A model generated the notes under the pieces. It worked only from the letters and a program-made list of their open reading frames with translations, was not told the DNA's origin and ran no database searches. Positions 1-15,076 of a stretch of 64,000 nt of DNA are shown here, one piece after another. The position numbers and the translations under genes were made by a program. Every line of letters begins with the position of its first letter. The first letter of the stretch is position 1. This stretch comes from Clostridia bacterium. Its GTDB lineage: Bacteria > Bacillota > Clostridia > Christensenellales > DTU072. The stretch lies in contig JAFVAC010000036.1 of NCBI GenBank assembly GCA_017476265.1, forward strand, positions 2,345-66,344, written 5' to 3'.

Positions 1-692
1 AAGCACTTCCGTCTTGTCGTCGGCGCGCCGGGACCGTGACGTAGTACGAAAGAAGAGAGAAGGACAGACGATCGGTCTTTCACGCCGACGGCAAAAAGGA
101 CTTCGGGCAAAGAGACGCTCCCCCTTCGGTCGTCGCAGGAATATCCCTGCGGCGACCGTAAACCGCCGCAAAGAATCGGAAAGTCGGGCACACCGACAAG
201 CCGCAACAAAGGTCGTCCAATAGACCAAGAGGAGATCACAAGCCCGTAACAGGCACTGAAAAAAAACGGAAATAAGAGGTATAATGATTTCGCAAGATAG
301 GAGAGAGTGCGTATGAAAAAGAGTTTTAGACTGTTTTTATTTTTTTACTATTCGTTTTATTGACCGTCAGTTTGGGCGGGTGTTTCTTCAAAGAGACCGA
401 GTTTTCCAAAAACCAAAAGAGAATTTTTGAGACAGAATATACAGAGCCTCATCTTTAATAGAGACACTTCGTCGAAAGGGGAACGCAAACGTATATATTT
501 TATCGGAAAATTCAGACGATTTAAGCAATCCGTACATAGATCTTTGTACTGTAACTTCAGACAAAAAATACAACATAACTCGCTTTCCTTTGCGGAGGGC
601 GGGCGTGTGTTCAAGAAAAAGTTCGGAAAGAGGCGTTCAACAAATTTGATAAAATATTTTTTTGACGATTTTATAAAAAACTAAAATACATA

Positions 693-721
693 TTGACAAA
701 AGTGCCTTTGCGTGGTATAAT
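693..721 (+). promoter_or_regulatory. Sigma-A (sigma-70) type promoter candidate upstream of the helicase operon
   Basis: TTGACA at 693-698, a 17-nt spacer, then an extended -10 TGgTATAAT at 713-721. It lies in AT-rich intergenic DNA about 180 nt upstream of ATG 903. Confidence 0.55.
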
Positions 722-902
722 ACGCCCGATGATGGAGGAAAAATTCGAGCGGGAGCCGGGGCGTTTTGTCCTTGGCGAGAGTGTTATCGCGCCGGGCGCG
801 AGTTTTTCCCATCGGAAGAAAGTATAATGTGTCTTATGCGGGTGACCGCACCGAGTGCCGCCGTTTGGCGGCGTGGCGTACAGTCGTTTTTTTGGGGGAA
901 AT

Positions 903-3900
903 ATGAATAACGACCAACAACGTAAGGTAGACGCAATGTGGGAGATGGTGCTTCGGTGTTTGACCGAGGCGCTGAACGGGACGAGAGTGCTGACCGAGAG
1001 TCAGTTCTCGATCATTGATCGTATCGTGACGTCGGAAGAGACGGCGAGACCCACTTCTCACTTGTTGGAGAGGCAAGTCGTAGTCAAGTTCACGACCTAC
1101 AAACTGAAGCTTGCGGACGAAGAAAAGGAGCGTGCGCGCGCGGAGAAGGCTCGTCTGACGGAAGAGGAGCAGGAGCGGCGGCGGCTTCTTGCCGAAGAGC
1201 GCAAGAGGGCGCGGCTGGAGGAAGCCAAGCGGCGGGAGGAGGAGCGGCTCCGGGAGGAGGAAGAACTTCGCCGTCGGGAGGAAGAAGAGGCGCGCAGGGC
1301 GCAAGAGGAGCGGGTCCGTGCGGCGACGTCTATGGACCTGCCGTTGGACTTTGAGAACGCTTTCTCCGACGACGACCGCGTCAAGGACGTGCGAGCCGAG
1401 GACCCTGCGGACGGGCTCTTTTTGTCGTTGCGGAATCTCGGACGGGTGGATATGGAGTATGTGTCCGCCGTCTGCGGCATGCCGCTCAAAGACGTCGTGA
1501 CCGCGCTTAAGGGCGTGGTGTATCAGAACCCGGAGACCTGGGGGGAGTGCTTTTATAAAGGGTGGGAGACGGCTGACGAATATCTGACCGGCGCGCTCAA
1601 ACGGAAGCTGACCGTCGCCAAGTCCGCCAACGTGGTCTACGAAGGGTGGTTCGACGACAACGTGCGCGCGCTCGAAAAGGTCCTCCCGCCGACGGTGCGC
1701 GGAGAGGAGATCTTCGTGACGTTGGGCTCGCCCTGGGTGCCCGCCGACGTCATAGACGAGTTTATTTTGTACCTATTGGGCAAGCCGGTCGGCTACTCCG
1801 CCGATTTTCGGGTGACGCCGCCCTCGTTGCAGGTGCGACACGACGAGTACACGGGCACGTGGGACATCCCGGAAAAGACCCGCTACGTCGGCATGGCGCT
1901 CTCCAATTCCGTCTACGGGATCCCGCGCATGACCGCGCTCAACATCATCGAGCGGACCCTCAATATGAAGACCGTCGTCGTCAAGGACGAGGTGTACGAT
2001 CCGCACCAAAAGAGCAATTTTCGGCGGGTCGTCAACAAGAAGGAGACCGTCGCGGCACTCGAGCGGCAAAAACTCATTCTAGACAAGTTCCGCTCCTGGA
2101 TCTGGACCGACCCGGACCGAAAAAAACGCCTTGAGGAGATCTACGAAGAGAAGTTCGGGTCCTACAAGCGGCGTCGGTTCGACGGGTCTTTTTTGCGCTT
2201 CCCGAATATGAGTCCGAAAGTGAGTCTGTACGACTATCAGAAGGACGCGGTGGCGAGGATCCTCTTTTCGCCCAATACGCTGCTTGCGCACGACGTGGGC
2301 AGTGGCAAGACGTACGTCATGATCGCCGCGGCGATGGAGATGAGGCGGATGGGCGTAGCCAAAAAGAACCTTTTCGTCGTCCCCAACAACATCGTCGGGC
2401 AGTGGAAAGAGATCTTTTTGACGATGTACCCGGACGCCGATCTCTTTATCGTCGAGCCGAAAATATTCTCTCCCGCCAAGCGCAACGAGACTTTGCGCAA
2501 GATCAGGGACGAGGACCACGACGGGATCATCATGGCGTATAGCTGTTTTGATCGGATCCCGCTGTCGCTCAAGGCGAAAAACGAGCAGATCACCGAGGAG
2601 ATGGAGGCGCTCAAACGGCGCAAGGAGTCCATCATGTCCGATACGCACGCCGTGGACCGTCGCATCACCGCCTTAAGCAAGCGTTTTGCCGAACTGTTAC
2701 AGATCAAAGAGGCGCTCAAAGACGTCGTCTGCTTCGACGAATTGGGCGTGGATCGTCTGTATGTGGATGAGGCGCACAATTACAAGAACGTCCCCATCGA
2801 CACGCAGATAGACGTCCTGACCGGCATCAATCCGAACGGCAGCGTCAAATGCCGCGAGATGATGGAAAAAGTCCACTTCGTACAGAAGAAAAACGGGGGC
2901 TCCGGCGTGGTCATGGCGACGGGAACCCCGATCACCAATTCCATCACCGACGCCTATATCTTCCAAAGGTATTTGCAGAGCGGAGAATTGGCTCTGATGG
3001 ACCTTCTCAGTTTCGACGCGTGGGTGGGGATGTTCGCCGAGCGGGCGACGGAGTTCGAGATAGACGTGGACACGTCCTCCTATCGCATGGCGACGCGCTT
3101 TTCTCGCTTTCACAATCTGACCGAACTGACCGCCCTTTTGTCCTCCATCGCCGACTTCCACCGGGTGGAGGGAGAGGCGGACTTGCCCGTCTGCAAGGGG
3201 CGCACGGACGTTTTGGTCAGAAAGACGAAGCCTTTAGCGGACTTTTTGAAGGTCATCTCCAACCGTGCCGACGCCGTCCGCAACGGCAGAGTGCGCATGA
3301 AGGAAGACAATATGCTCAAGATCACGACCGACGGGCGACTGGCGGCGCTGGATCTTCGACTCCTCGATCCCAAGAGTCCTTTTTTGACCGACAGCAAGGT
3401 GGCGTACTGCGCGAAGAACGTCTCCGACATCTGGCACCGCACCGCCAATCTCCGCTCCACGCAGCTCGTATTTTGCGACACGTCCACGCCCAAAGAGGGC
3501 TTCAATATCTACGACGATATGAAGAGGATCTTGACGACGGTCTATCGCGTGCCGGATTTTGAGATCGCGTTCGTCCACGACGCCGACACCGACAAGAAGC
3601 GGGAAGAACTCTTCGAGAAAGTCCGTCGGGGGGAGATCCGCGTCCTGATCGGCTCCACCTTAAAACTGGGTCTCGGCGTCAACGTGCAGGACAGGCTGCT
3701 TGCCGTCCATCACCTCGACGTCCCGTGGCGTCCCGCCGATATGGTTCAGCGGGAAGGGCGCATCATCCGGCAAGGGAACCGCAATAAAGAAGTGTTTGTG
3801 TACCGCTACGTCACCGAAGGCAGCTTCGACGCATATTCTTGGCAACTTTTGGAGACCAAACAACGGTTTATAGGAGCCCTTTTATCAGGTTCTCTGGACG

Positions 3901-4562
3901 TTCGGAGCGAGGACGACGTGGACGGGACGGCGCTGGATTACGGCGAAGTAAAAGCCCTTGCCGTCGGCAATCCGAAGATCAAAAAGCGGGTTGAGACAGA
4001 GAACCGTCTCAACCGCTATCGCATGATGCAGGCGAAGTGGATCGAGCAGAAGGAGTACTTGATGCTCAGGCTCGAGGAGTTGCCCAAAGAGATCGACAAG
4101 CAGAAGACTTTGATCGAGGAGGTGGGCGCGGACGTGGAGTACGTCGAAAATACCGTCCACAGGGTCGGCAACGACGAAAAGCGGGTGCTGAGCGAGCAAC
4201 TGTACGACGCCGTGCTTGAAAACGATATGAAAAACGAGGAGACGGACTACATCGAGTACCGCGGCTTTTTGATCACTCTCCCCGCCAATATGCTCAAGGA
4301 GAGTCCCTTTTTGTATCTCAAGAGGGCGCACCGCTACCGTGTGGAAGTGGGGGCGCGCGCGGGCGTCATCCGACGGGTAGACAACTGCATCGACGAATTG
4401 CGCGGCAGGCTGATAAAGTACGGCATCCGTCTGGACGAACTGACCGAGCAAAAGGCGCAGATCGAGGCGGAACTTCAGAAGGAAGTGGACTATGCCGATC
4501 GGATCGAAGTGTTGAAGCAAGAACTGAAAGAAATCGACAAGGAGTTAAAGATAGACAAATGA
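903..4562 (+). CDS. SNF2/DEAD-like superfamily-2 helicase with an N-terminal Glu/Arg-rich coiled coil
   Basis: The ORF is open 855-4562. ATG 903 is preferred because GGGGGA lies just upstream. Helicase motifs in the translation are AHDVGSGKTY (GSGKT codons 2298-2312), LYVDEAHNYKN (DEAH 2766-2777), MATGTPITNS, IRVLIGSTLKLGLGVNVQ and QREGRIIRQGN. The stop overlaps the next start (ATGA at 4559-4562). Confidence 0.85.
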   Translation: MNNDQQRKVDAMWEMVLRCLTEALNGTRVLTESQFSIIDRIVTSEETARPTSHLLERQVVVKFTTYKLKLADEEKERARAEKARLTEEEQERRRLLAEERKRARLEEAKRREEERLREEEELRRREEEEARRAQEERVRAATSMDLPLDFENAFSDDDRVKDVRAEDPADGLFLSLRNLGRVDMEYVSAVCGMPLKDVVTALKGVVYQNPETWGECFYKGWETADEYLTGALKRKLTVAKSANVVYEGWFDDNVRALEKVLPPTVRGEEIFVTLGSPWVPADVIDEFILYLLGKPVGYSADFRVTPPSLQVRHDEYTGTWDIPEKTRYVGMALSNSVYGIPRMTALNIIERTLNMKTVVVKDEVYDPHQKSNFRRVVNKKETVAALERQKLILDKFRSWIWTDPDRKKRLEEIYEEKFGSYKRRRFDGSFLRFPNMSPKVSLYDYQKDAVARILFSPNTLLAHDVGSGKTYVMIAAAMEMRRMGVAKKNLFVVPNNIVGQWKEIFLTMYPDADLFIVEPKIFSPAKRNETLRKIRDEDHDGIIMAYSCFDRIPLSLKAKNEQITEEMEALKRRKESIMSDTHAVDRRITALSKRFAELLQIKEALKDVVCFDELGVDRLYVDEAHNYKNVPIDTQIDVLTGINPNGSVKCREMMEKVHFVQKKNGGSGVVMATGTPITNSITDAYIFQRYLQSGELALMDLLSFDAWVGMFAERATEFEIDVDTSSYRMATRFSRFHNLTELTALLSSIADFHRVEGEADLPVCKGRTDVLVRKTKPLADFLKVISNRADAVRNGRVRMKEDNMLKITTDGRLAALDLRLLDPKSPFLTDSKVAYCAKNVSDIWHRTANLRSTQLVFCDTSTPKEGFNIYDDMKRILTTVYRVPDFEIAFVHDADTDKKREELFEKVRRGEIRVLIGSTLKLGLGVNVQDRLLAVHHLDVPWRPADMVQREGRIIRQGNRNKEVFVYRYVTEGSFDAYSWQLLETKQRFIGALLSGSLDVRSEDDVDGTALDYGEVKALAVGNPKIKKRVETENRLNRYRMMQAKWIEQKEYLMLRLEELPKEIDKQKTLIEEVGADVEYVENTVHRVGNDEKRVLSEQLYDAVLENDMKNEETDYIEYRGFLITLPANMLKESPFLYLKRAHRYRVEVGARAGVIRRVDNCIDELRGRLIKYGIRLDELTEQKAQIEAELQKEVDYADRIEVLKQELKEIDKELKIDK

Positions 4563-5674
4563 GCGAAGGAAAACTGAACGCCGCCCTGATGACGGTAGAC
4601 AAAGTGGTATCGGTCCTGTCCGACGCCTATGTGAGCGTCCTCGAAAAGGGACTCCCGGCAAAAGCCTTTCCGTCCGTGATGCTCTGGGGCGCGCCGGGCG
4701 TAGGCAAGTCGCAGGCGGTACGGCAGATCGCTGACGAAATCACCTATCGAACCGGCAAAAAGGTCGTGGTGACCGACGTAAGACTCCTCCTATTCAATCC
4801 CATCGACCTGAGGGGCATTCCTACCGCCAACGAGGACAAGACCGAGGCGGTTTGGCTCCGTCCGCAGATCTTCCGTATGGACGGGGGAAAGAACGTGGTC
4901 AACATTCTCTTTTTGGACGAGATCTCGGCGGCGCCGCCCTCGGTACAGGCGGCGGCGTATCAGATCGCCCTGGATCGGACGGTGGGAGAGCATCGCCTCC
5001 CCGACAACTGCATCGTCCTCGCCGCCGGCAATCGCTTGACCGACAAGTCCGTCGCATACAAAATGCCCAAAGCTTTGGCAAACCGCTTTTTGCATATCGA
5101 GGTGGAGCCGAGTTTTTCTTCCTGGAAGAAGTGGGCGATCGGCGCGGGGATCCATCCGACCGTCGTGAGCTTTTTGTCCTTCCGCAGGAACTATCTCATC
5201 GACGAGAGTCCCCTGTCCGAAGCGGTCGCCTATCCCACGCCGCGTAGCTGGGAGATGGTCAGCGACGTATTGAACAACGTCTCCGACGACGTTTCGGTCG
5301 TCTATGACCTGATCGCAGGATTGGTCGGATCCGGGATCGCCGTGGAGTATCGGACGTATCTGAAGATCTTCTCTACGCTCCCCGACGTCGCGGAGATATT
5401 CCGGGGGCGGGAGCCGACCGCGCCGAAAAGTAACGACGCCGTATACGCTCTGGTGGAGGCGATGACGTCCTACGCCCGCGCCCACAAGACCGACTACACC
5501 GCGATAGACCACTCCATTCGCTACGCGTCGAGGTATCTGTCACCCGACTTTTGCGCCGTCCTTTTGCGGAACTACACCTATCTCGAAAAGGACTATGTGA
5601 AAAAACTCTTGCAGATGGAATCCTACCGCAGATGGATGAGCGTCCACGGAAAACTGTTAAACGGAGCGGTCTGA
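4559..5674 (+). CDS. MoxR-like AAA+ ATPase (AAA_5 type)
   Basis: Walker A GAPGVGKS (4688-4711), Walker B ILFLDEI (about 4907-4924), AAGN sensor and ALANRF. The size (371 aa) and single AAA module are typical of MoxR/RavA/NorQ-type ATPases. The start overlaps the helicase stop. Confidence 0.85.
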   Translation: MSEGKLNAALMTVDKVVSVLSDAYVSVLEKGLPAKAFPSVMLWGAPGVGKSQAVRQIADEITYRTGKKVVVTDVRLLLFNPIDLRGIPTANEDKTEAVWLRPQIFRMDGGKNVVNILFLDEISAAPPSVQAAAYQIALDRTVGEHRLPDNCIVLAAGNRLTDKSVAYKMPKALANRFLHIEVEPSFSSWKKWAIGAGIHPTVVSFLSFRRNYLIDESPLSEAVAYPTPRSWEMVSDVLNNVSDDVSVVYDLIAGLVGSGIAVEYRTYLKIFSTLPDVAEIFRGREPTAPKSNDAVYALVEAMTSYARAHKTDYTAIDHSIRYASRYLSPDFCAVLLRNYTYLEKDYVKKLLQMESYRRWMSVHGKLLNGAV

Positions 5675-5770
5675 GTCGCTTGCGGGAACGTAATGGTATT
5701 ATTGCGCAGATTACACGCGAAGTGAAGCAAGCGTATATCGCATATGAAATATATATCGCCAAACAGCTAA

Positions 5771-6161
5771 GAGGGGGAAAATTATGAGGGAGGGGAGAGA
5801 GTTTGAGAGAGGGTTTGGAGCGATAGCCCTCTCTCAATTTTACTCCGTCCAATACGGGTATTGGACGGCAAAATCCACTAATCGGATTTTTAGGGCAGAG
5901 CCCTGAAACGTGCCGGGGTGCTTTTTCGACCGTCATCCTGACCGAGCGAGTGCAACGAGCGCGTGGAAGGATCTCGGGGATGGTTCGACTTCGCCACTCG
6001 TATTTACCGATTATATGTTCTGGTTTGGTCTATGCGTATAAGTCAATACTGTTTTTGGTTTTTGTTTTCCCTCGTCAGTTTGCCCTTTGGGCAAATTGCA
6101 CCATGACGATAGTGCCCCTGCCGTTCGTTCGGTTCCTTTCTTTGCGCTCAAGAAAGGAACG
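5771..6161 (+). repeat. Dispersed hairpin-rich repeat, copy 1 (long form with the 109-nt internal module at 5993-6101)
   Basis: Aligns by eye end to end with the reverse complement of 29231-29617, and with 12193-12486 apart from the module. It contains at least 5 stem-loops, e.g. TTGAGAGAGGG..CCCTCTCTCAA, CCGTCCAATA..TATTGGACGG, AGGGC..GCCCT and GTTCCTTTCTT..AAGAAAGGAAC. Boundaries are accurate to about +/-10 nt. Confidence 0.8.
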
Positions 6162-6200
6162 TATATTACTCCGACAGGGAGAAAGGACTGTGGAGGTCAT

Positions 6201-7544
6201 ATGAACGTCACACAGGAAGAGGTACGGGCGTACGTCCGCAGATTGATCGTCTCGAGGACGAGGCTGCTTGTCAAAAGCGGCTTTTTCGGCTTGCTGTTGA
6301 TGAACGCGACTTTTGCTTTGGACGAGACGTTGACGACGGCGGCGACCGACGGAGAGAAAATCTATTTTTCGCCGACGTTTTTGTCCGGATTGACCGACGA
6401 GCAACTCGACTTCGTGGTCCTGCACGAAGTGATGCACATGGCGCTGTCCCACTGCAAGCGGGGAGAGACATTCGATCAGAGGCTTTTCAATATCGCCTGC
6501 GACATCGTCGTCAACAGCACCATCTTCCGCTCTATGCCGGGTTTGTCCACCGTCCGGGTCTGCGGGGAGGAGCCCATGCGTCTCACGCCCGACGGACGGG
6601 AGGGCGCCGACTTCACCGCGGAAGAGGTCTACGCGATGTTTTTGTCCGACGGACAAAAGAAAAAGGGCAGCCGGGAGAAAACACGGGGCTCGAAGGGCAA
6701 GGGTGATCCCGGCGCGGGCACAAGCGGGTCGGACGGTCAAAGATCGTCCGGAGACCGACAAAAGGGCTCCGGCGAGGGCGTTCGGGAAGAGGCATCAGAT
6801 ATGGACGACGGGCAATTCGACAGTCACGCCAAGTGGCGGGAGGAGGACGATTCCCGCGAGAATGCCGACCTGTGGAGAAAGCGCGTCGCGGACGCCGCCG
6901 AGGCGGTCCTTATTCGTGATCCGACCAATTCACAAGGGGACGTCCCGGCGTTCGCCGCAAGGGTATTGCGCGACTTAAAGGACCCGCAGACCGATTGGCG
7001 CACCGTCCTCAACGACTTTTTGAGCGAGGAGCGGGTGGACTATACCTTTTTCCCGCCCGACCGCAGGACGGACGGACCTTTCTTTTTGCCGGACTTTAAC
7101 GAGTTCGACGTGACGGCGACGGACGTCTTGTTTATGATCGACGCGTCGGCGAGTATGTCGGACGAGATGTTGACGGAGGCGTATTCCGAAGTCAAGGGGG
7201 CGATCGACCGCTTCGGCGGCAGACTCAACGGACTGCTCGGCTTTTTTGACGCGGCGGTCACCGAGCCGAAACCCTTCTGCAACGAGGAGGATTTTTTGAA
7301 GATCAAGCCCTACGGCGGGGGCGGGACGAGCTTCTTTCCCGTGTTCGAGTGGGCGAGAAAGTACGCCGAGGACCATCCTTTGGTCGGGATCGTCGTCTTG
7401 ACCGACGGATACGCGCCCTTTCCCGACGAGTCGATCTCCGGCGGGATCCCCACCGTCTGGGTCGTCAACAACGAAGTGCGCACGCCGCCTTGGGGAAGGG
7501 TCACGCGCATTAAGAGCGGTATAGGGTCCGAAAAGCCGAAATAA
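6201..7544 (+). CDS. Putative zinc-metallopeptidase (HExxH) + von Willebrand factor A (VWA) domain protein, DUF2201-like
   Basis: ATG 6201 is preceded by GGAGG. The longer ORF from 6087 runs into the repeat and was not used. HEVMH lies at 6423-6437. A MIDAS-like DxSxS motif (MIDASASMS) lies at about 7135-7160, followed by a C-terminal VVLTDGYAPFP. A Gly/Ser/Lys-rich low-complexity linker lies at about 6650-6800. Confidence 0.8.
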   Translation: MNVTQEEVRAYVRRLIVSRTRLLVKSGFFGLLLMNATFALDETLTTAATDGEKIYFSPTFLSGLTDEQLDFVVLHEVMHMALSHCKRGETFDQRLFNIACDIVVNSTIFRSMPGLSTVRVCGEEPMRLTPDGREGADFTAEEVYAMFLSDGQKKKGSREKTRGSKGKGDPGAGTSGSDGQRSSGDRQKGSGEGVREEASDMDDGQFDSHAKWREEDDSRENADLWRKRVADAAEAVLIRDPTNSQGDVPAFAARVLRDLKDPQTDWRTVLNDFLSEERVDYTFFPPDRRTDGPFFLPDFNEFDVTATDVLFMIDASASMSDEMLTEAYSEVKGAIDRFGGRLNGLLGFFDAAVTEPKPFCNEEDFLKIKPYGGGGTSFFPVFEWARKYAEDHPLVGIVVLTDGYAPFPDESISGGIPTVWVVNNEVRTPPWGRVTRIKSGIGSEKPK

Positions 7545-7653
7545 AGAAGACCAAAATCAAGAATAATAGTTTTTTCATCGGGAAAGATGATCTTAAAAGA
7601 GGACGGAGACGAATCGTTTGCCAACCGCCTCTTTTTATGATACTATAATAAGT

Positions 7654-9897
7654 ATGAAGAGATATTCCGTTTCGGGTATGACCTGTTCCGCCTGTTCGGC
7701 GCGGGTCCAAAGAGCCGTCGAAAAGGTGGACGGCGTGGAAAGAGCCGACGTCAATCTCCTCACCAACTCGATGACGGTGGAGGGGACGGCTACCGACGCC
7801 GCCGTTTGTCGCGCCGTCAAAAAGGCGGGCTATGGCGCCCGACCGTATTCCGACGCCGTCGAGGAGACGGACAAAGGAGGACTGTCGAAAAAGCTCCGTT
7901 TGATTTTGTCCTTCGTCTTTCTCGTGCCCCTGTTCTTCCTTGCGATGGGTCCCATGATGGGGATCCCGATGGACGGACTGACGAATATACATTGGTTGTA
8001 TGTTACGATCCAGTTCGTTTTGACGGTGCCCATCATCGTCCTCAACTTTTACTATTTCACGAACGGCTACAAGTCCCTTTTTAAGGGCGCGCCGAATATG
8101 AACACGCTTATTGCCGTGGGTAGCAGCGTGGCGTTTTTGTACAGCGTGTTTTCCTATGCGATGGTCGTATACCACACGGCGGTGGGATCTTCGCACGAAG
8201 TTTTGCACGAGTACGCGCACAGATTGTACTTCGAGAGCGCGGGGATGATCCTGACGCTCATCTCCTTAGGCAAGTATCTGGAGGCGATCTCCAAAGGGAG
8301 GACCACTTCGGCGATAGAAAAACTCCTCCGTTTGGCGCCCGACGAGGCGACGGTATGGCGCGACGGACAAGAGTGCGTCGTCCGTTCGGACGAGGTCCTT
8401 TTGGGCGAGACGGTGATCGTCCGTACCGGGGAGAGGATCCCGCTCGACGGCAGGATTGTCGAGGGCAGAGGTGCGATCGACGCGTCCGCGGTCACCGGAG
8501 AGAGTCTGCCGCAGGCGGCGGAAGTCGGCGACGAAGTCGTCGGTGGGACGCTCCTTGTCGGCGGGTATATCGAGTTCGTCGTGACGGCGGTGGGCGAGGA
8601 TACGGCGCTGAGAAAGATCGCGCGGTTTGTTGAAGAGGCGGCGAGTTCGAAGGCACCCGTCAGTCGTCTTGCCGACAAAATAAGCGGGATATTCGTCCCG
8701 ACGGTGATGGGCATAGCCGCGATCGCCTTCGTCGTATGGATGATCGTGACAAGAGACCTCGCCTTTTCGCTCAATATAGCCGTGTCCGTTTTGGTCATCT
8801 CCTGTCCCTGCGCATTGGGACTTGCGACCCCCGTCGCCATTATGGTGGGCACGGGCAAGGGCGCGGAGAAGGGTATTTTGGTCAAGAATGCCGAGAGCCT
8901 GGAGACCTTGCACAAGATAGACGTCGTCGTGTTCGACAAGACGGGCACCGTGACCGAAGGAAATCCGTCGGTCGTATCGGTTGTTTCTGAAGACGTCGAT
9001 AGGACGATGACGATAGCGTACTCGATGGAGAAGTTGAGCGCGCATCCTCTCAGTGCGGCGATCTGCGCCGAAGCGGAGCGGATGGGACTGGCGGAAAAGC
9101 CCTCGGAGGACTTTGCGGAGGTCGCCGGACGGGGACTGACGGGCAAGGTGGACGGAAAGGTCGTTCTGGTCGGAAACGACAGACTTCTTTTGGAGTCGGG
9201 AGTGGATCTGCCGTATCGAGGCAAGGGGACGACGGTCTACGTCGCGGCGGGGGGAGAATATCTCGGCGCGATAGAACTCGCCGACCGCCCCAAGGACTCG
9301 GCAAAACGCGCGGTTGAGAGACTGCGGGAGATGGGCGTAAAGACGGTGCTTTTGACCGGGGACAACGAGTCCGCCGCAAAAGAGGTCTGCGACCAAGTGG
9401 GCATAGAAGAGTATCGTGCCGGGGTCTTCCCGGAGCAGAAAGCGCAATATGTGGACGGCTACAAACGTTCCGGCGGGTCGGTCGCGATGGTGGGGGACGG
9501 GATTAACGACGCTCCCGCGCTCACCGTAGCGGACGTGGGGATCGCCATCGGCGCTGGCACGGACGTCGCCATCGAGAGCGCCGACGTCGTATTGGTCAAG
9601 AGCGACCCCACCGACGTAGCGGAGGCGATCACCCTCGGCAGGCAGACGATGCGGATCATCCGGCAGAACCTCTTTTGGGCGTTCGGGTACAACGTCCTCG
9701 GCATACCGATCGCGGCGGGCGTACTGTATCCGGCGATCGGACTGCTTCTCAATCCGATGATCGCGGCGGCGTGTATGAGCCTGAGTTCAGTCACCGTCGT
9801 CACCAACGCGCTGCGCCTGCGCAAGATGAGATCGAAACGAGAAAAGGCGAAAAAAAGGGCGGCGAAATCGGAGCGGAAGCGCGCGGAAAAGAAATAG
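7654..9897 (+). CDS. copA: Copper-translocating P1B-type ATPase
   Basis: N-terminal HMA domain MKRYSVSGMTCSACSARVQ, transmembrane CPC motif (8803-8811), DKTGT phosphorylation site (8935-8949) and GDGINDAP hinge. An alternative TTG start at 7618 with an upstream GGAGA cannot be excluded. Confidence 0.9.
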   Translation: MKRYSVSGMTCSACSARVQRAVEKVDGVERADVNLLTNSMTVEGTATDAAVCRAVKKAGYGARPYSDAVEETDKGGLSKKLRLILSFVFLVPLFFLAMGPMMGIPMDGLTNIHWLYVTIQFVLTVPIIVLNFYYFTNGYKSLFKGAPNMNTLIAVGSSVAFLYSVFSYAMVVYHTAVGSSHEVLHEYAHRLYFESAGMILTLISLGKYLEAISKGRTTSAIEKLLRLAPDEATVWRDGQECVVRSDEVLLGETVIVRTGERIPLDGRIVEGRGAIDASAVTGESLPQAAEVGDEVVGGTLLVGGYIEFVVTAVGEDTALRKIARFVEEAASSKAPVSRLADKISGIFVPTVMGIAAIAFVVWMIVTRDLAFSLNIAVSVLVISCPCALGLATPVAIMVGTGKGAEKGILVKNAESLETLHKIDVVVFDKTGTVTEGNPSVVSVVSEDVDRTMTIAYSMEKLSAHPLSAAICAEAERMGLAEKPSEDFAEVAGRGLTGKVDGKVVLVGNDRLLLESGVDLPYRGKGTTVYVAAGGEYLGAIELADRPKDSAKRAVERLREMGVKTVLLTGDNESAAKEVCDQVGIEEYRAGVFPEQKAQYVDGYKRSGGSVAMVGDGINDAPALTVADVGIAIGAGTDVAIESADVVLVKSDPTDVAEAITLGRQTMRIIRQNLFWAFGYNVLGIPIAAGVLYPAIGLLLNPMIAAACMSLSSVTVVTNALRLRKMRSKREKAKKRAAKSERKRAEKK

Positions 9898-9902
9898 CGA
9901 GT

Positions 9903-9929
9903 CGGACGAAAAAAATCGTCCGTCTTTTT
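9903..9929 (+). terminator. Rho-independent terminator candidate after copA
   Basis: CGGACGA-aaaaaa-TCGTCCG stem-loop followed by TCTTTTT. Confidence 0.55.
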
Positions 9930-9930
9930 C

Positions 9931-9960
9931 TTTACAAAGGACTTTTGTCGGGGCTATAAT
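9931..9960 (+). promoter_or_regulatory. Sigma-A type promoter candidate
   Basis: TTTACA (9931-9936), an 18-nt spacer, then TATAAT (9955-9960), about 48 nt upstream of ATG 10008. Confidence 0.5.
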
Positions 9961-10007
9961 GGACGTGGAAACAGAAAAAACACGATTTTACGAATGGAGG
10001 TTATGAT

Positions 10008-10580
10008 ATGAACAGAGCGGAAAAGAAAGATTTTCAACAAAAATTCGACGTAAAAAAATGGGTCGAGAGTGAAGAAGCGGGCAGAGACAAGTGCGGGGAG
10101 TACGACTTTTGCAACAAGTGCGACAAAAACCTGTCCGAGCCCTGCGCCGAAGCCAACGCCGCCGCGCGCGGAGTCAGCCTGAAGGAGAGTATGGCTATGG
10201 CGGACAAGGGGACCTCTTCGGTCGTCAACAAAAAGTTCGTCGCGGACTATCTCGAAGAGACTTTCGGCGACAAAGTGGAGACCTACCGCCGCAACAACAC
10301 GATCCGGAGCGGACGTCTGCCGCTTGCCGATACGCACTACGTCGTCGGCGACAAAAAGAAGTGCTTCATCTATGTGTACGAGACCGTCAAGGGCGGGACG
10401 ATGTTCTTGATCAAAGTCCCCGCGGACTACGCCGAAGGACTGAAAAAGGCAAACAAGAGCGTCTATTTGAGCGCTTTTCCCAAGGCAAAAACCCCTTGGT
10501 ACACCGTGATCGCGGACGAGAATCTTTCCGCGGAGGACGTCAAGACCCTCCTCAAGGACCTCGTCGCGCTCAACGCCTGA
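10008..10580 (+). CDS. Hypothetical protein; the C-terminal half may be MmcQ/YjbR-like (weak recollection)
   Basis: ATG is preceded by GGAGGT. The N-terminus carries a Cys cluster, CGEYDFCNKCDKNLSEPC. The C-terminal pattern KKCFIYVY..MFLIKVP..AFPKAKTPWYTVIADENLSAEDVKTLLKDL resembles the YjbR fold signature. This was not verified. Confidence 0.7.
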   Translation: MNRAEKKDFQQKFDVKKWVESEEAGRDKCGEYDFCNKCDKNLSEPCAEANAAARGVSLKESMAMADKGTSSVVNKKFVADYLEETFGDKVETYRRNNTIRSGRLPLADTHYVVGDKKKCFIYVYETVKGGTMFLIKVPADYAEGLKKANKSVYLSAFPKAKTPWYTVIADENLSAEDVKTLLKDLVALNA

Positions 10581-10601
10581 CAAAATTGATCATCGAAAAA
10601 G

Positions 10602-10632
10602 AAGCTCGCGCCGCAAGACGCGGGCTTTTTTT
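10602..10632 (+). terminator. Rho-independent terminator candidate
   Basis: AAGCTCGCG-ccgcaaga-CGCGGGCTT stem (one U-G pair) followed by a T7 run. Confidence 0.6.
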
Positions 10633-10660
10633 ATCGGTCGAAAAGGGATAAAAACGGGTC

Positions 10661-10689
10661 TTTACGCCGAACGGAAAAGATGGTACAAT
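10661..10689 (+). promoter_or_regulatory. Sigma-A type promoter candidate very close to the start codon
   Basis: TTTACG (10661-10666), a 17-nt spacer, then TGgTACAAT (10681-10689). ATG 10699 is only 9 nt after the -10, with no Shine-Dalgarno sequence between them. Confidence 0.45.
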
Positions 10690-10698
10690 AGACGTATT

Positions 10699-12129
10699 AT
10701 GAAAAAGAAGATCGTCCTTACTTTTGTTTTGTTCATTTTGGTTTTTACCCTCGTCGTGGGACTCGCAGGTTGCGGCAAAAACTATGAGACGAGGGAGGGG
10801 TACACCCACGTTGTGTTCTATAACAACGGCGCCGACGGAAAAGAATCGGAAGAGAGCCTGTTCGTCGAACACGATACTACCTTTCCCTTGCCCACCGGGT
10901 TGACGAAAGAGGGCTATGCTTTCGTTGGTTGGAAGCACGGAAGCGGTCTGTCCGTCCGCGACGAGTGGTACAGTGGAAAAAACGATCTAATGACCTTTTC
11001 GGCGATCTTCGAGAGGGACTACCGCGACCTCGACGCGACTTGCGCCGTTTGGGACAACAAGGGCGCGGACTATACCGACTACGCCGTGGGCGAGTACGAC
11101 GATCTCAACGTCAAAGTGATGGACGTCGTGGTAAGAGCGGGGTATAAGGCGACTTTCTACAGCAAACGGGGCTACAAAGGCAGAGCGGACGTGGTCTGCT
11201 ACAAAGGCTTTTTGAATCGTCGCGTCCACTCGATGAAGGTGGAGCGGATAGCGTCGGAAGAGGAGACGTTCGATCACGCGTTGACGGACGACGACTACGC
11301 CTACCTTCTGAAAGAGTACGCCCCCAAGATCTGGTGGGACAAGGAGGAGGAGTACTTCGCCTCCACCGTGGAGGACGGAATGGCGAACCTGACCCGAACC
11401 GCCTCGTCCGACGGGTATTACTACGAGATCCCCGGGATCACCGATCCGTATTTTATGAACGACTTTTTGAAAGGCAAAAAAGACGGTGCCGAAATTTACG
11501 GCTTCGCGGTCAAAAAGGAGTACAGATATCTCAGCTTGTGCTACTACATCTACGAACCCTACAACTACGGCAAAAAAGTCATGGGGACCTTGTACGGGAA
11601 CCACGTCGGCGACTGGGAGCACGTCTCCGTTGCGCTCTCGCTGGAGGAGAACGCGGACTCTGCGACCGTCCGACCGCTCTTTATGGAGACGTCCTACCAC
11701 GAGTGGCGGGACTATACCCCCTACGACGCACTGGAAAAGGAGGGCAAGCACCCCGTCGCATATATCGCAAGCAAGAGCCACGGGACTTGGGCGAGCGAGG
11801 GGACGCATCCTTATCTCGATCTCGTGGTGTTCAAGTTGACCGACCAGACCTCGAAAGGTTACGCCTGGGACACCTGGAAGAGCATTGAGACTTACGTTTA
11901 CGACGCCCTCTCCTGGCAGGGCAGAGGGGTGGGAGACAGCGAGTGGAACACTTGCTTTGACAAAGACGTCTTTGACCCGAACAGCCGCTCGGTCATCCAT
12001 TGGGGCAATAAAGGAATGGATAAGGGAATCATATATAAGTACTTTGTGACCGGACCGACGGGACCGGAACAGAAGACGAGCCTTTACAACTACTATACTC
12101 TGAATATTCCCCAAACCTACCGCATATAG
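10699..12129 (+). CDS. Lipoprotein with a Listeria-Bacteroides (Flg_new) repeat and a Vps62/DUF946-like domain
   Basis: Signal peptide MKKKIVLTFVLFILVFTLVVGLAGC with a perfect lipobox LAGC. A Flg_new-like segment reads GYTHVVFYNNG..LTKEGYAFVGWKHGS. Vps62/DUF946-like signatures are EYAPKIWWDKEEEYFAS, GNHVGDWEHVSV and KHPVAYIASKSHG. Confidence 0.85.
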   Translation: MKKKIVLTFVLFILVFTLVVGLAGCGKNYETREGYTHVVFYNNGADGKESEESLFVEHDTTFPLPTGLTKEGYAFVGWKHGSGLSVRDEWYSGKNDLMTFSAIFERDYRDLDATCAVWDNKGADYTDYAVGEYDDLNVKVMDVVVRAGYKATFYSKRGYKGRADVVCYKGFLNRRVHSMKVERIASEEETFDHALTDDDYAYLLKEYAPKIWWDKEEEYFASTVEDGMANLTRTASSDGYYYEIPGITDPYFMNDFLKGKKDGAEIYGFAVKKEYRYLSLCYYIYEPYNYGKKVMGTLYGNHVGDWEHVSVALSLEENADSATVRPLFMETSYHEWRDYTPYDALEKEGKHPVAYIASKSHGTWASEGTHPYLDLVVFKLTDQTSKGYAWDTWKSIETYVYDALSWQGRGVGDSEWNTCFDKDVFDPNSRSVIHWGNKGMDKGIIYKYFVTGPTGPEQKTSLYNYYTLNIPQTYRI

Positions 12130-12162
12130 CGGCGGCTTGCATAGCAAGGCGCTTTACGCAAC

Positions 12163-12192
12163 AAAAACCGAGCTGCAATAGGCTCGGTTTTT
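12163..12192. terminator. Bidirectional terminator candidate between convergent genes
   Basis: AAAAACCGAGC-tgcaatag-GCTCGGTTTTT, i.e. an A-run and a T-run flanking a 6-bp GC-rich stem. Confidence 0.6.
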
Positions 12193-12486
12193 CGTTCCTT
12201 TCTTGTGCGCAAGAAAGGAACCGAAAGAACGGCAGGGGCACTATCGTCATGTTGAGCGAAACGAAGTGAAGTCGAAACATCCCCGGGGATCCTTCCACGC
12301 GCTCGTTACACTTGCTTGGTCAGGATGACGGTCGAAAAAGCACCCATCACGTTTTAGGGCTCTGCCCTAAAAATCCGATTAGCGGATTTAACCGTCCAAT
12401 ACCGTATTGGACGGAGAAAAGTTGAGAGAGGACTATCGCTCTAAACCCTCTCTCAAACTCTCTCCCATTCCTCATAATTTTCCTCC
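12193..12486 (-). repeat. Dispersed hairpin-rich repeat, copy 2 (short form without the internal module)
   Basis: Collinear with copy 3 on the same strand, except that the 109-nt module is replaced by the 16-nt filler TTGAGCGAAACGAAGT (12252-12267). Confidence 0.8.
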
Positions 12487-12558
12487 TTTTGGGTGTAATA
12501 GAGTTTTGGGAAAATGATACGTTTTTCCTTCCGCACGGCGTACGTCGTGCATATCACT

Positions 12559-12593
12559 CTTGCTATGCAAGGAATTCCTCCTTTCATAGCAAG
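12559..12593 (-). terminator. Strong stem-loop immediately downstream of the SipL-like stop (no U-tract)
   Basis: CTTGCTATG (12559-12567) pairs with CATAGCAAG (12585-12593), with an inner AAGGA/TCCTT extension. It lacks a T-run, so its function as a terminator is uncertain. Confidence 0.3.
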
Positions 12594-12598
12594 ACTAT

Positions 12599-14071
12599 TT
12601 ATTCTTCGGGCAGGGAGAGTTCGCTATACATCAAGATCTTTTCGCCACCCGTGAGGGGGAGGGTCAGGTCGGGATTGAGACTAAGCAGGGTCTCCTCTTT
12701 TACGCCGAGGGACTTGGCCACGTCGAAGAGGTCTTCGCCGGGGCGGGTCAGATAGAGGCTGATGGCGATATCGTCGGGCTCTTTCGGTGCGCCGAGGGTG
12801 ACTTCGGTGACGCAGGACAGCGTTTTTTCATCGGTCCCGCGGACTTTGACGTCGTACTCTGCGGAGACTTCGATATCGGTCCCGGTCTTGAGCCTTGCGC
12901 CGATCCCCTTGACGGTCAACGTAGGACGGAGGTCGGAGGAGCAGCCGTAGGCGCCGTCGATTTTGAGACTGACGGGGATGTCCAAAGAGCGGCTTGCCGG
13001 GAGGTTGTTTTCATCGGCGTACAGCACTGTGGCGGTGAGGACGCCTTCGACAAGGATGCCGTTATCGTTGACGGCGGAAAGAGTCTTGACCACGGGACCC
13101 AGGCAGGCGTAGACTTCGTTGACGACGGCTCCGGTGTTGAGGACGGCGGTAGATCGGTCGGATACGGTGCGCGAGCAGAAAGACGCGTCGTAGGTCGCCG
13201 CCTCCGTCTGAGCGGAACAGTCGTAGTCCACCGAGTAGCAATCGGTCATGACCGTCGTCTCGGACTCATACCCGAGCGTGGTCAAAAAGGTCAATTCCAG
13301 ATCGGTCAGGATCCCGCGCGGATTGCCGTCGGAGAGGGAGACGTCGCAGCGTGTGACGAGGCACTCCACGTCCGTCTTGACGTCCCCGTCGCACTCGCAT
13401 ACGACGTCGGTACCGAAGGGATGACTGAAAGTCTGTGTAAAGAACTGGTCGTTGTCGCTTACGGCGACGACGCGAAGGGTGATCTCGCCGTCCAGACGGA
13501 ACGCCCCCGCCGAGGGATAGCAGTCGGTCACGACGACGGTAGCGGAGCAGTCCGCGACCGATTTGACGGGCATACGCATCTCGTCCGATTGGGTTAGATA
13601 CAGATTGGACTTGTTGAGGTCCTCCCGGACCGTCTTTTGGTCGGATAGGCGACACACAAGGTCCTCCGACGGCGTGGCGATCGAGATCTGTCCGGGCAGG
13701 ATATACTGTCCGCGCACGGTCTCTTCGGCGACGAGTTTTCCTTCCGAAGCGTCGTAATAGCACTTGTTGACGTCAACGGCAAAAGAAGACTTTGTAGTCC
13801 CGTCTATGCCTTGTTGGGACACCGAACGAACTGTTTCTGCCGTAGTCGCTCTTCTTTCATAAGTCCCGGAGTCCGTCAAAACAAGCGCGTAAAAAGTCGT
13901 CTTGACTCCCACGCGGAACTCGTCCGTGAGAGCGTCGCACGAAGTCGCGTGCGCCTCTGCGCGCACCGCGAGGATCTTTCCGTCCGCCGCGTCCGGCACG
14001 GCGCTCTCCACGACCCGGACGACGCCGGTGTTGACCTTTTTGTCCACGACGACCACTTTCTTTTCCGTCAT
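12599..14071 (-). CDS. DUF3794-type repeat protein with a C-terminal LysM domain (SipL/SpoVID-like sporulation protein)
   Basis: I chose ATG 14071 (MTEKKVVVVDKK..), preceded by GGAGGGG, over the ORF-track start at 14263. The C-terminus DDIAISLYLTRPGEDLFDVAKSLGVKEETLLSLNPDL..GEKILM is LysM-like. The Val/Thr/Asp-rich beta body and the position next to veg fit clostridial SipL-type proteins. The family call is from memory. Confidence 0.7.
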   Translation of the reverse strand: MTEKKVVVVDKKVNTGVVRVVESAVPDAADGKILAVRAEAHATSCDALTDEFRVGVKTTFYALVLTDSGTYERRATTAETVRSVSQQGIDGTTKSSFAVDVNKCYYDASEGKLVAEETVRGQYILPGQISIATPSEDLVCRLSDQKTVREDLNKSNLYLTQSDEMRMPVKSVADCSATVVVTDCYPSAGAFRLDGEITLRVVAVSDNDQFFTQTFSHPFGTDVVCECDGDVKTDVECLVTRCDVSLSDGNPRGILTDLELTFLTTLGYESETTVMTDCYSVDYDCSAQTEAATYDASFCSRTVSDRSTAVLNTGAVVNEVYACLGPVVKTLSAVNDNGILVEGVLTATVLYADENNLPASRSLDIPVSLKIDGAYGCSSDLRPTLTVKGIGARLKTGTDIEVSAEYDVKVRGTDEKTLSCVTEVTLGAPKEPDDIAISLYLTRPGEDLFDVAKSLGVKEETLLSLNPDLTLPLTGGEKILMYSELSLPEE

Positions 14072-14186
14072 ATAATACCCCTCCGAAAATTCATTCTTGC
14101 TACACGATATTCCGGCGGGAAAGAAAGTATGACTAAAAAGTTTTTTTTCGGCAATACTTCGGACTATGAGAGAGGCAAAGAGCGAC

Positions 14187-14402
14187 ATGAATGCGACCGT
14201 AAGCCTGATCAAAGAGGCGGTGGGAAAGCGCGTCGGGATCCGGGTCAATCGCGGCAGAAACAAGATCGAGGAGATGGTCGGCGCGGTGGAGAACGTCTAT
14301 CCGCGCATATTTACTTTCCGCGCGGACGACGGGAGTCTGAATAGCTTCTGCTACGCCGACGTCGTGAGTAAAAACATCCGATTCTTTCGCGTGAGAGAGT
14401 AG
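14187..14402 (+). CDS. veg: Veg family protein (DUF1021)
   Basis: MNATVSLIKEAVGKRVGIRVNRGRNKIEEMVGAVENVYPRIFTF..SFCYADVVSKNIRF is collinear with B. subtilis Veg as I recall it (..[40 protein letters not shown]..). The ORF is also open from ATG 14166. Confidence 0.8.
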   Translation: MNATVSLIKEAVGKRVGIRVNRGRNKIEEMVGAVENVYPRIFTFRADDGSLNSFCYADVVSKNIRFFRVRE

Positions 14403-14478
14403 AGATCCGTCCGGATCGGACCGGGCATTCCGTCGAAAATATTCCGATTTCGCGCGTTTACGGGCGAACGATCGGAAA

Positions 14479-14515
14479 GAACGCCTTCGAAACGGTCGAA
14501 GGCGTTCTCCTTTTT
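14479..14515 (+). terminator. Rho-independent terminator candidate after veg
   Basis: GAACGCCTTCGA-aacgg-TCGAAGGCGTTC (12-bp stem) followed by TCCTTTTT. Confidence 0.65.
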
Positions 14516-14570
14516 CAGCGGATCTTGCGAGACTTCCGACGACGTAAAACGACCCGCTTAGATCGTCGTT

Positions 14571-14828
14571 TTAGCAGTCCCTCGTCAGCCAAAACGCCAA
14601 CAGGATGACCGCCGGGAGGCGGTTTTTTCCTTTGGTCGGATCGGACGGAGCGGGTTTTTGCTCGATCGGGAAGGGGAATTTTTGCGGGTGACAATCACAC
14701 TCGCAGCGGCAGTAGTAGGTCCTCTCTTCTTCGCAGGGACAAGGCGTTGTGTCCCACGGATCGAGAGGTCGATAGGGCGGACGACCGACGGGGTCGTCGC
14801 ACATGCAGTTTTTTCTTTTTTCGTTCAT
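14571..14828 (-). CDS. Small Cys-rich protein with a hydrophobic C-terminal segment (hypothetical)
   Basis: ATG 14828 is preceded by AGGAGGAAAG. The 85-aa product is MNEKRKNCMCDDPVGRPPYRPLDPWDTTPCPCEEERTYYCRCECDCHPQKF...LPAVILLAFWLTRDC. It has 10 Cys, mostly in CxC pairs. Confidence 0.6.
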   Translation of the reverse strand: MNEKRKNCMCDDPVGRPPYRPLDPWDTTPCPCEEERTYYCRCECDCHPQKFPFPIEQKPAPSDPTKGKNRLPAVILLAFWLTRDC

Positions 14829-15000
14829 CTTTCCTCCTGTAGTATGTAGGACTTTTTCCTTTACCCTCCCACGCCATACTATGCCGGGCAAGAGACTTTC
14901 GTCGCAAAAAGCGGCGATTTTTTATTTTTACCGCAAAAAAGCGGCTGGTTTTTCCGAAAAAATGGGCGTTCTCGCAAGAAAAATTTTTCAAAAAAAGATA

Positions 15001-15029
15001 TTGAATTACGCGCGCAAATATGATATTAT
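15001..15029 (+). promoter_or_regulatory. Sigma-A type promoter candidate for the large surface-protein gene
   Basis: TTGAAT (15001-15006), a 17-nt spacer, then TGaTATTAT (15021-15029), with an A-rich tract upstream. Confidence 0.5.
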
Positions 15030-15076
15030 TAATATATCTATCGGTATATACCGAAGGTGAGGAATGAGGAATAGGT

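Follow-up and report, generated by a model that had tools for sequence, protein, structure and literature searches.

The trio and its closest described relatives

The vWA-MoxR ternary conflict systems are operonic, and a nucleoside triphosphate (NTP)-dependent role against invaders has been predicted for them (Kaur, Burroughs, Iyer and Aravind, 2020, eLife; PMC7159879). In ~9% of these systems a peptidase takes the effector position, where metallopeptidases occur "on rare occasions" (PMC7159879), and SF2/SNF2 helicases (SF2, superfamily 2) are also among their effector domains (PMC7159879, PMC12839542). The characterized MoxR-vWA pairs NorQD and RavA-ViaA are maturation chaperones (PMC9976466, PMC13036017). 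DarB-type or polyvalent methylase-helicase dyads are invasion-phase proteins (PMC5512222), and a survey of jumbo phages reported a "MoxR-vWA pair with an N-terminal metallopeptidase", for which it proposes virion assembly and proteolytic processing (PMC7824862). Here we analyze a three-gene locus, the trio, in a 64,000-nucleotide stretch of DNA from a Clostridia bacterium (assembly GCA_017476265.1, contig JAFVAC010000036.1), referred to as the window. The trio encodes a helicase, a MoxR-class AAA+ ATPase and a protein in which a zinc peptidase domain is fused to a vWA domain. Positions 693-7544 are a self-contained three-gene operon with its own strong promoter (predicted), which moves between genomes as a unit. 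Judged by sequence, the trio appears to join two modules of mobile elements, the helicase half of the DarB type and a MoxR/zinc-peptidase-vWA pair of the phage and plasmid type. We give an even chance to the reading that it is an uncharacterized anti-invader (defense or conflict) system of Bacillota.

ORF calls (open reading frames, ORFs) gave three long ORFs on the plus strand in 903-7544:

903-4562, plus strand: methylase-free DarB-type helicase/translocase of SF2 (SNF2-related), 1219 aa with the ATG at 903 as start
4559-5674, plus strand: MoxR-class AAA+ ATPase, 371 aa, its start overlapping the helicase stop
6201-7544, plus strand: zincin metallopeptidase and vWA protein, 447 aa

An earlier, sequence-only reading of the window had proposed a candidate NTP-driven conflict or remodelling cassette, and both the synteny found here and the lack of a match to any named system support this proposal; the defense function itself is what we infer. 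The translational coupling of the helicase and AAA+ genes, which that reading had noted, was seen by direct reading of the sequence as an ATGA overlap of stop and start at 4559-4562. Its description of the vWA gene as the next gene holds for the order of the genes but not for their contiguity, as a 526-bp spacer (5675-6200) lies between the AAA+ and vWA genes. The domains that it had assigned, namely an SF2 helicase of 1219 aa with a charged head, a MoxR-type AAA+ protein and an HExxH N-domain fused to a vWA domain with a metal ion-dependent adhesion site (MIDAS), were all recovered by the Pfam matches, residue conservation and structural models given below.

The trio is a conserved unit in Bacillota

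An alignment of the AAA+ protein was searched against GTDB with one genome per species (185,579 species genomes), which yielded 487 loci encoding close relatives. Synteny was examined in 80 of these loci, the gene order being checked by tblastn. All 80 are from Bacillota, mostly from metagenome-assembled genomes of gut and rumen, and they belong to at least six families. The hits of the search are spread over Acutalibacteraceae, Lachnospiraceae, Oscillospiraceae, Christensenellaceae, Peptostreptococcaceae and Erysipelotrichaceae, and all have ~60-65% identity to the AAA+ protein of the window. The sequence-only reading had made its proposal hinge on synteny in other genomes; helicase, AAA+ and vWA genes were found in the same order and orientation in 80 of 80 loci, wherever the contig was long enough. 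The helicase and AAA+ genes abut or overlap across the loci, and the AAA+ and vWA genes overlap by ~11 nt. When the ORFs of the flanks were clustered, the three genes of the trio were the only gene clusters common to the loci. The trio behaves as one unit, and its distribution is broad and patchy.

One pair of loci was not used as evidence for transfer: L059 and L060 are labelled Anaerovoracaceae and Erysipelotrichaceae, yet they share ~90% nucleotide identity over 21 kb. A labelling or binning problem is more likely here than a recent transfer.

Collections of mobile elements gave a different picture from the chromosomal loci. Among 2.9 million viral contigs only two close relatives of the trio were present, both on short contigs, and in a set of 72,556 plasmids no relative exceeded ~42% identity. 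The trio is essentially absent from these collections and is not a phage or plasmid module. A DNA-level blastn search of positions 1-8000 against phages and plasmids was set aside, since it matched only a ~220-320-bp region of helicase motifs V/VI and was uninformative beyond family membership.

A predicted DarB-type helicase without methylase

The helicase (plus strand) was divided into the following parts:

aa 1-142: variable head with a charged helix at aa 62-141
aa 143-440: conserved N-domain
aa 441-1040: helicase core, followed by a coiled-coil tail
aa 464-470 (nt 2292-2312): motif I, DVGSGKT
aa 622-625 (nt 2766-2777): motif II, DEAH
aa 949-958 (nt 3747-3776): motif VI, QREGRIIRQG

The Pfam families Helicase_C, ResIII and SNF2-rel_dom were all matched above cut-off, and WH_1, DUF8437 and Helicase_dom are the precomputed Pfam families for this protein. 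Motifs I, II, III and VI are invariant in an alignment of 63 homologues. The best match by far was to phrog_10089 ("DarB-like antirestriction", E 1e-234), in which aa 169-1217 align with profile positions 2111-3210 of 4647. With aa 164-1219 as query, tblastn detected proteins of gut "Bacteriophage sp." contigs at 30-39% identity, and the matches include phage genes annotated as DarB-like, DNA methylase or PLxRFG. Phage-collection proteins are 35-39% identical over aa 164-1219; one of them, L111, is a single 1955-aa ORF whose Eco57I-type adenine methylase domain (aa 506-593) lies N-terminal to the helicase. Such a methylase domain was found neither in the window helicase (Pfam, NCBIfam and, for aa 1-168, PHROGs alignments) nor in its 63 close homologues. 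In the place of the methylase, the window protein and these homologues have a variable head with a length of 0-282 aa (median 83), usually built of a short amphipathic helix ([ST]xx[DE]Lxxx[IL]xxL) and, after it, an E/K/R-rich one; the E/K/R-rich stretch of the window protein, aa 62-141, is 66% charged. The trio helicases are 1068-1360 aa long.

The protein is not a generic SNF2 helicase, and a DarB-type helicase module minus the methylase is a more precise description than the label "SNF2-type" given in the sequence-only reading. Searches of solved structures by sequence for the trio returned generic matches only (XPB/Rad54 lobes, RFC; selecase with E 0.14), none of them closely related. The fast-diverging head would fit a component under an arms race.

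In Eubacterium sp. contigs from several samples (L084, 923-10011; L085-L089), the helicase is split into an N-terminal part of 890 aa and a C-terminal part of 252-288 aa. The inserted element that splits it is Tn4451-like; among its genes are those for a large serine recombinase, TnpV, Mob_Pre and tetracycline resistance of the ribosomal-protection type.

The MoxR ATPase and the peptidase-vWA protein

The AAA+ protein and its partner (plus strand) contain these sites:

AAA+ protein, G44-S51 (nt 4688-4711): Walker A
AAA+ protein, D120 and E121 (nt 4916-4921): Walker B
Peptidase-vWA protein, nt 6423-6452: HExxHxxxxH, H75-E76-x-x-H79 and H84
Peptidase-vWA protein, aa ~150-206: G/K/S-rich disordered linker, with a helical subdomain after it
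Peptidase-vWA protein, nt 7140-7154: MIDAS motif DxSxS of the vWA domain (D314, S316, S318), the site being completed by T376 and D402

The AAA+ protein matches Pfam AAA_3, the MoxR family, with 40.7 bits (cut-off 27) and AAA_5 with 24.2 bits (cut-off 22); AAA is also matched. It aligns over its full length with phrog_1297 (E 1.6e-92), and an alignment of 20 homologues contains 134 invariant columns, Walker A and B included. At E <= 1e-10 it matches 6613 database proteins, and its plasmid homologues are named "MoxR family ATPase" in RefSeq.

The third gene starts at the ATG at 6201, ahead of which a GGAGG site is located; the TTG at 6087 is not the true start. Its product matches Pfam DUF2201_N, a putative metallopeptidase domain (E 5e-35), and DUF2201, a VWA-like domain (E 7e-16), and aligns over its full length with phrog_1314 (E 4.5e-72). 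The residues H75, E76, H79 and H84 and the MIDAS residues D314, S316, S318, T376 and D402 are invariant in an alignment of 42 homologues. AlphaFold models reached a predicted local distance difference test (pLDDT) score of ~90 for aa 1-155 and of 80-90 for the vWA domain. The modelled C-domain matched VWA/MIDAS structures in Foldseek (E ~1e-4), including CLCA1, TEM8 and the MDN1 MIDAS domain. When the N-domain was modelled alone, its nearest structures were the minigluzincins selecase and jannalysin, then SPRTN, BlaR1 and PprI, all of them non-significant with a best E of 0.06. The models support a zincin fold for the N-domain and no specific peptidase family. The peptidase domain also has a weak SprT-like Pfam match (E 0.004); since the fold search gave no significant match, a relation to SprT/SPRTN stays a lead and not a result. 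The linker is disordered and mostly net-positive. With helicase motifs, Walker A/B, HExxH(+H) and DxSxS-T-D all invariant, the three proteins of the trio appear to be enzymatically intact.

PHROG 1314 and its RefSeq phage homologues (e.g. NC_023719 gp576 and NC_023581) are widely annotated as "HNH endonuclease". An HNH domain was not found in the peptidase-vWA protein of the window, and the label looks like a propagated misannotation.

Genomic neighborhoods of the trio

The genes flanking the trio vary from locus to locus. Housekeeping genes surround it in L092 and L084, while defense islands do so in L002 (AbiEii, Fic, WYL) and L093 (Fic, RtcB-PrfH, TIR-TPR, ADP-ribosylglycohydrolase). A Pfam scan of 273 flank proteins found WYL as the commonest family (20 proteins), followed by SpoVK/IetA-like AAA, WCX, GmrSD_N, Metallophos, soluble FtsH-like M41, Fic and AbiEii; many housekeeping families appeared singly. 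Families of integrases, transposases, phages or conjugation do not recur among the 273 proteins; that the trio could be a housekeeping module of a mobile element, which the sequence-only reading had raised as its possible undoing, is not borne out by these flanks. Among 123 immediate neighbors, PADLOC recognized WYL (8), IetA-like proteins (7) and in addition AbiEii, SoFic, PDC-S02/S23/S26, HEC-06 and mad3. Defense-type neighbors are frequent and the distribution is patchy, but many flanks are housekeeping and the neighbor counts stand without a matched background control.

A WYL-WCX regulator lies within 10 kb of the trio in 27 of ~72 loci and abuts it (within 120 bp, same strand) in nine of them; it is possibly a facultative regulator of the trio. 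Abutting genes are located upstream in, for example, L005, L021, L052 and L059 and downstream in L032, L034, L050 and L071. In ~13 of 72 loci the trio comes with two extra genes, whose products are a ~670-aa protein ending in an IetA/SpoVK-like AAA domain and a ~280-aa protein without Pfam match. Either both genes follow the vWA gene, or they flank the trio (L004 5614-8535; L005, L007, L082; L015 4460-13234; L027), and these loci may represent a variant with five genes. In ~6 loci only, a gene nearby encodes a soluble FtsH-like AAA+M41 protein (cluster c8).

The frequent WYL neighbors bear on an alternative to a defense function, in which the trio would serve repair as an accessory system that clears DNA-protein roadblocks or crosslinks: the translocase would meet a bound protein, MoxR would unfold it and the zincin would digest it, comparable to SPRTN/Wss1 with p97/Cdc48 and a helicase in eukaryotes. 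WYL regulators include sensors of single-stranded DNA (ssDNA) and DNA damage, namely PafBC and DriD. The weak SprT-like match of the peptidase domain points the same way, as does SPRTN (6mdx), which appears at rank 8 of the Foldseek search with a probability of 0.72; the similarity is, however, under significance, and the nearest folds are generic minimal zincins. The G/K/S-rich, mostly net-positive linker could bind DNA, and the pair stands beside helicase or replication genes in unrelated elements (pTHEOS01, Presley and phiFa, described below). Variable insertion sites and a patchy presence in ~490 of 185,579 species genomes are unlike a housekeeping repair pathway, and repair genes are not enriched in the 273 flank proteins scanned with Pfam. 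We regard the repair function as unlikely. It shares its mechanism with the defense reading and differs from it in the substrate only, self damage as opposed to an invader.

Relatives in phages and plasmids

The AAA+/peptidase-vWA pair is present in 386 phage records, including N4-like phages (gp25-like), Bacillus phage G, cyanophage S-TIM5 and coliphages of Asteriusvirus size. In the more distant phage relatives among the viral contigs, no DarB-type helicase was found within 10 kb of the pair. In Acinetobacter phage Presley and Thermus phage phiFa the pair is located among early/replication genes. The N4-like phage Presley (L091 6220-10366) has the order ATPase, gp25-like gene, helicase and polymerase, with a helicase of 408 aa that is unrelated to that of the trio; in phiFa the pair lies near RNase H and DnaB. 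On plasmid pTHEOS01 of Thermus oshimai (L112 6923-14149), the MoxR and VWA genes are succeeded by a hypothetical gene and then a UvrD-like one. The operons with unrelated helicases in Thermus and Presley hint that the pair generally works with DNA motors.

Further plasmids carry distant pairs in other settings. A Sphaerotilus plasmid has an unknown 592-aa gene, MoxR and VWA among WYL, Sir2 and DUF262 genes, which form a defense island, and a second such island, on pSYSA of Synechocystis, holds the pair with toxin-antitoxin genes and DUF262. Pairs beside transfer or establishment genes were detected on plasmids of Burkholderia (PRTRC, type IV secretion system) and Rhodovastum (toprim, ParB). 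Rhodococcus pYLC2, which was checked for a DarB-type helicase together with the pair, encodes a helicase of 1782 aa next to a relaxase but lacks the AAA+/vWA pair.

These relatives lend themselves to a second alternative, in which the trio is an anti-restriction or establishment module of a mobile element, past or present, that would strip or degrade host restriction complexes on incoming DNA. The "DarB-like antirestriction" family is the best family match of the helicase, whose relatives are methylase-helicase fusions in phage-collection records, and DarB-type dyads act in the invasion phase (PMC5512222). The pair is common in phages, and on the Burkholderia and Rhodovastum plasmids its neighbors are the transfer and establishment genes just named. 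Against this, the methylase, which is the defining function of the DarB type, is absent, and the trio itself is chromosomal, with some housekeeping flanks, no recurrent integrase, phage or conjugation gene around it and next to no presence in the viral and plasmid collections. In the window it shows no GC anomaly, and in the window's clade it is inherited vertically, as seen by comparison with locus L108 (see below). We consider an anti-restriction function decidedly improbable.

The phage loci also inform a third alternative, a dedicated chaperone or maturation system in which one particular protein complex would depend on the MoxR-vWA pair for its assembly or processing, with the helicase as its client or as an unrelated passenger. 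Precedents are the maturation chaperones NorQD and RavA-ViaA (PMC9976466, PMC13036017) and the virion assembly or proteolytic processing proposed for the same pair in jumbo phages (PMC7824862). The helicase is, however, the only conserved candidate client gene in the neighborhood, the cellular loci are without virion genes, and in N4-like and Thermus phages the pair occupies early/replication regions and not structural modules. We hold a chaperone role to be very unlikely.

Promoter, leader, spacer and local setting in the window

The following non-coding features accompany the trio in the window:

693-721, plus strand: sigma-70-type promoter, TTGACA, 17 nt, TGGTATAAT with extended -10
722-902, plus strand: 5' leader of ~180 nt with terminator-like hairpins at 787-801 (followed by a T-run) and ~858-895
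5675-6200, plus strand: lineage-specific non-coding spacer of 526 bp with a hairpin at 5787-5854 and a terminator-like site at 5900-5919

The predicted promoter agrees with the consensus at 12 of 12 positions, and a TG extension is present as well. Its -35 and extended -10 hexamers are kept in the orthologous locus L108, a 78%-identical relative, and the rest of the leader has diverged. Folding of the leader is no stronger than that of shuffled sequence (z = -0.41), and an Rfam scan of it gave no match. As the leader is unconserved in L108, not unusually stable and without an Rfam match, we claim no regulatory RNA or attenuation. Rfam and tRNA scans of positions 1-16000, and of the upstream region in L001, returned spurious microRNA-type matches only, and no tRNA was found in the window; we therefore claim no riboswitch, non-coding RNA or att-tRNA either.

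A spacer at the AAA+/vWA junction is unusual in this family: the two genes overlap by ~11 nt in ~70 related loci. That of the window is not alignable with the 285-bp spacer of L108. Within it neither a plus-strand promoter match nor a meaningful Rfam match was found; the hairpin at 5787-5854 gave a spurious mir-8521 match. A repeat or a miniature inverted-repeat transposable element was rejected as its origin, as the window contains a single copy of the spacer, which shows no relation to that of L108, the nearest relative. Despite the spacer, the vWA gene of the window keeps every invariant residue.

The neighborhood of the trio is the same in the window and in L108, with a Spo0A_C-domain gene upstream and a copper ATPase downstream, which means that the trio is inherited vertically within the window's own clade. 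The GC content of the trio region shows no anomaly within the window. No methylase, nuclease or integrase gene was found adjoining the trio when the window neighbors were scanned with Pfam, in agreement with the sequence-only reading.

Positions 1-690 of the window, which continue upstream as L001 5186-5442, make up ~1.1 kb before the promoter with no convincing ORF and no Rfam match. In L108 the matching position holds an MFS_2 transporter gene and a gene for 155 aa, so the sequence in the window may be decayed or deleted. Three small XRE-type helix-turn-helix genes lie further upstream of the window trio (L001 3527-4364); a WYL-WCX gene is absent in the window. Downstream, positions 7618-9897 encode a copper-translocating P-type ATPase (HMA, E1-E2_ATPase, Hydrolase) that is unrelated to the trio. 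It probably starts at an ATG near 7654 and not at the TTG at 7618, with a promoter-like site at 7618-7646 ahead of it.

A possible mechanism and the weight of the evidence

For the defense reading, we propose the following course of events. The helicase would load on DNA and translocate, either as sensor or as engine. The MIDAS site of the vWA domain may then grasp an acidic residue of a protein, which could be a DNA-bound protein or the helicase's own variable charged head. A MoxR hexamer would remodel the captured protein using ATP, and the fused zincin peptidase would cleave the remodelled protein. In the end, the invader's DNA-bound protein would be destroyed or an abortive response released. 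A joint machine of the three proteins, a DNA-bound protein as its substrate and immunity as the outcome are all steps that we infer.

The strict synteny and coupling of the three genes, their invariant motifs, the patchy and broad distribution, the variable and partly defense-type flanks, the near absence of the trio from phage and plasmid collections, the variable helicase head and the occurrence of distant pairs in defense islands speak for a defense function. A precedent is given by the predicted MoxR-vWA conflict systems, which have peptidase effectors and a third, sensor component (PMC7159879, PMC12839542).

Several observations weigh against it. The trio contains no obvious toxic effector such as a nuclease, NADase or pore, and a peptidase effector is unusual. 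The closest characterized or annotated relatives of both modules are offensive, namely the DarB antirestriction proteins for the one and, for the other, the pairs that phages carry among early/replication genes and plasmids beside transfer genes. In the Eubacterium lineage with the transposon-disrupted helicase, the AAA+ and vWA genes are nevertheless intact. Guilt by association is moderate, as most neighbors are housekeeping genes. Finally, the 526-bp spacer with its terminator-like hairpin may uncouple the vWA gene of the window from the operon.

A bolder version of the defense reading is quite improbable in our estimate. Immunity would here be aimed at the proteins that an invader has on its DNA and not at the DNA: a DarB-derived translocase would patrol and hand proteins via MIDAS to a MoxR-gated zincin, as a bacterial counterpart of proteolysis by helicase, p97 and SPRTN, and the module would have been captured from phages or plasmids that use the pair offensively. 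Terminal proteins, relaxases, replication initiators and end-protecting proteins, DNA-bound or covalently attached, would then be the substrates.

If the trio is a defense system, a cassette that is widespread in gut and rumen Clostridia would join the catalogue; ~490 species genomes have it, and metagenomic proteins of this kind number in the thousands. A protease would act as its effector, with a MoxR-vWA remodeller as the gate and a DNA translocase coupled to it; no characterized example of this combination exists. The function of the MoxR and peptidase-vWA (DUF2201) pair, which is common in N4-like, jumbo and other phages and on conjugative plasmids, would become approachable for the first time. 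The locus would further show one module that is common to offense in mobile elements and defense in the host. Cultured carriers exist (Lachnospiraceae bacterium AC2029, with locus L002 6198-12500 and the usual overlap of AAA+ and vWA genes, and Faecousia intestinalis CLA-AA-H192), and the hypothesis is therefore directly testable.

Comparison with named systems

The sequence-only reading could not assign the trio to a named system, and this agrees with the searches made here. PADLOC (2023) returned partial, generic helicase-lobe matches (DrmD, DpdE, ZorD, DrmA), a marginal mad8 match for the AAA+ protein and none for the vWA protein. The helicase matches (E 1e-12 to 1e-7) cover ~100-180 residues and are confined to the C-terminal lobe. 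In NCBIfam the helicase scored 25-42 bits, compared to cut-offs of 610-1500 (DrmD 41.9 vs 610; ZorD 24.9 vs 1500). Full-text literature searches (DUF2201/PF13203/PF09967; MoxR with vWA and defense) found no description of the trio.

DISARM DrmD, Zorya ZorD and Dpd DpdE share with the trio only the generic SF2/SNF2-type C-terminal helicase lobe, and the partner genes of these systems (DrmABC/MI, ZorABC, DpdA-K) are absent at the trio. Like NorQ-NorD, RavA-ViaA and CbbQ-CbbO, the trio has a MoxR-class AAA+ gene beside a gene for a MIDAS-VWA partner. Unlike in these, a peptidase is present on the VWA protein and no metabolic client operon lies nearby, and in NCBIfam the trio proteins did not match the families of these pairs.

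The helicase is homologous to the DarB-type dyad of phage P1 over ~1050 residues, including a conserved region before the core. It differs from the dyad in lacking the N6-adenine methylase and the LPD36 domain, and with 1219 aa it is shorter than the DarB-type dyads of ~1900-4600 aa. It is chromosomal and translationally coupled to the AAA+ gene, whereas the dyads are virion- or plasmid-borne and uncoupled. The other two proteins resemble the phage/plasmid pair (phrog_1297 and phrog_1314, N4 gp25-like), with full-length matches, the same domain order and adjacent genes. The phage and plasmid pairs have 25-50% identity to that of the trio and no DarB-type helicase within 10 kb; they are located in replication or transfer regions, often with one or more genes between the two.

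The vWA-MoxR ternary systems share with the trio a MoxR AAA+ protein, a MIDAS-vWA protein with a fused domain of the effector position (here the zincin), a third protein and the organization as an operon. In contrast to these systems, the third component of the trio is a stand-alone DarB-type helicase and not VMAP, iSTAND, FtsH or a beta-propeller, its AAA+/vWA pair is of the phage-type DUF2201 family, and its hosts are unicellular gut and rumen Clostridia instead of multicellular actinobacteria and cyanobacteria. Taken together, the trio is a genuine, well-delimited and apparently undescribed cassette within the MoxR-vWA-based conflict systems, built from parts that are shared with phages and plasmids.

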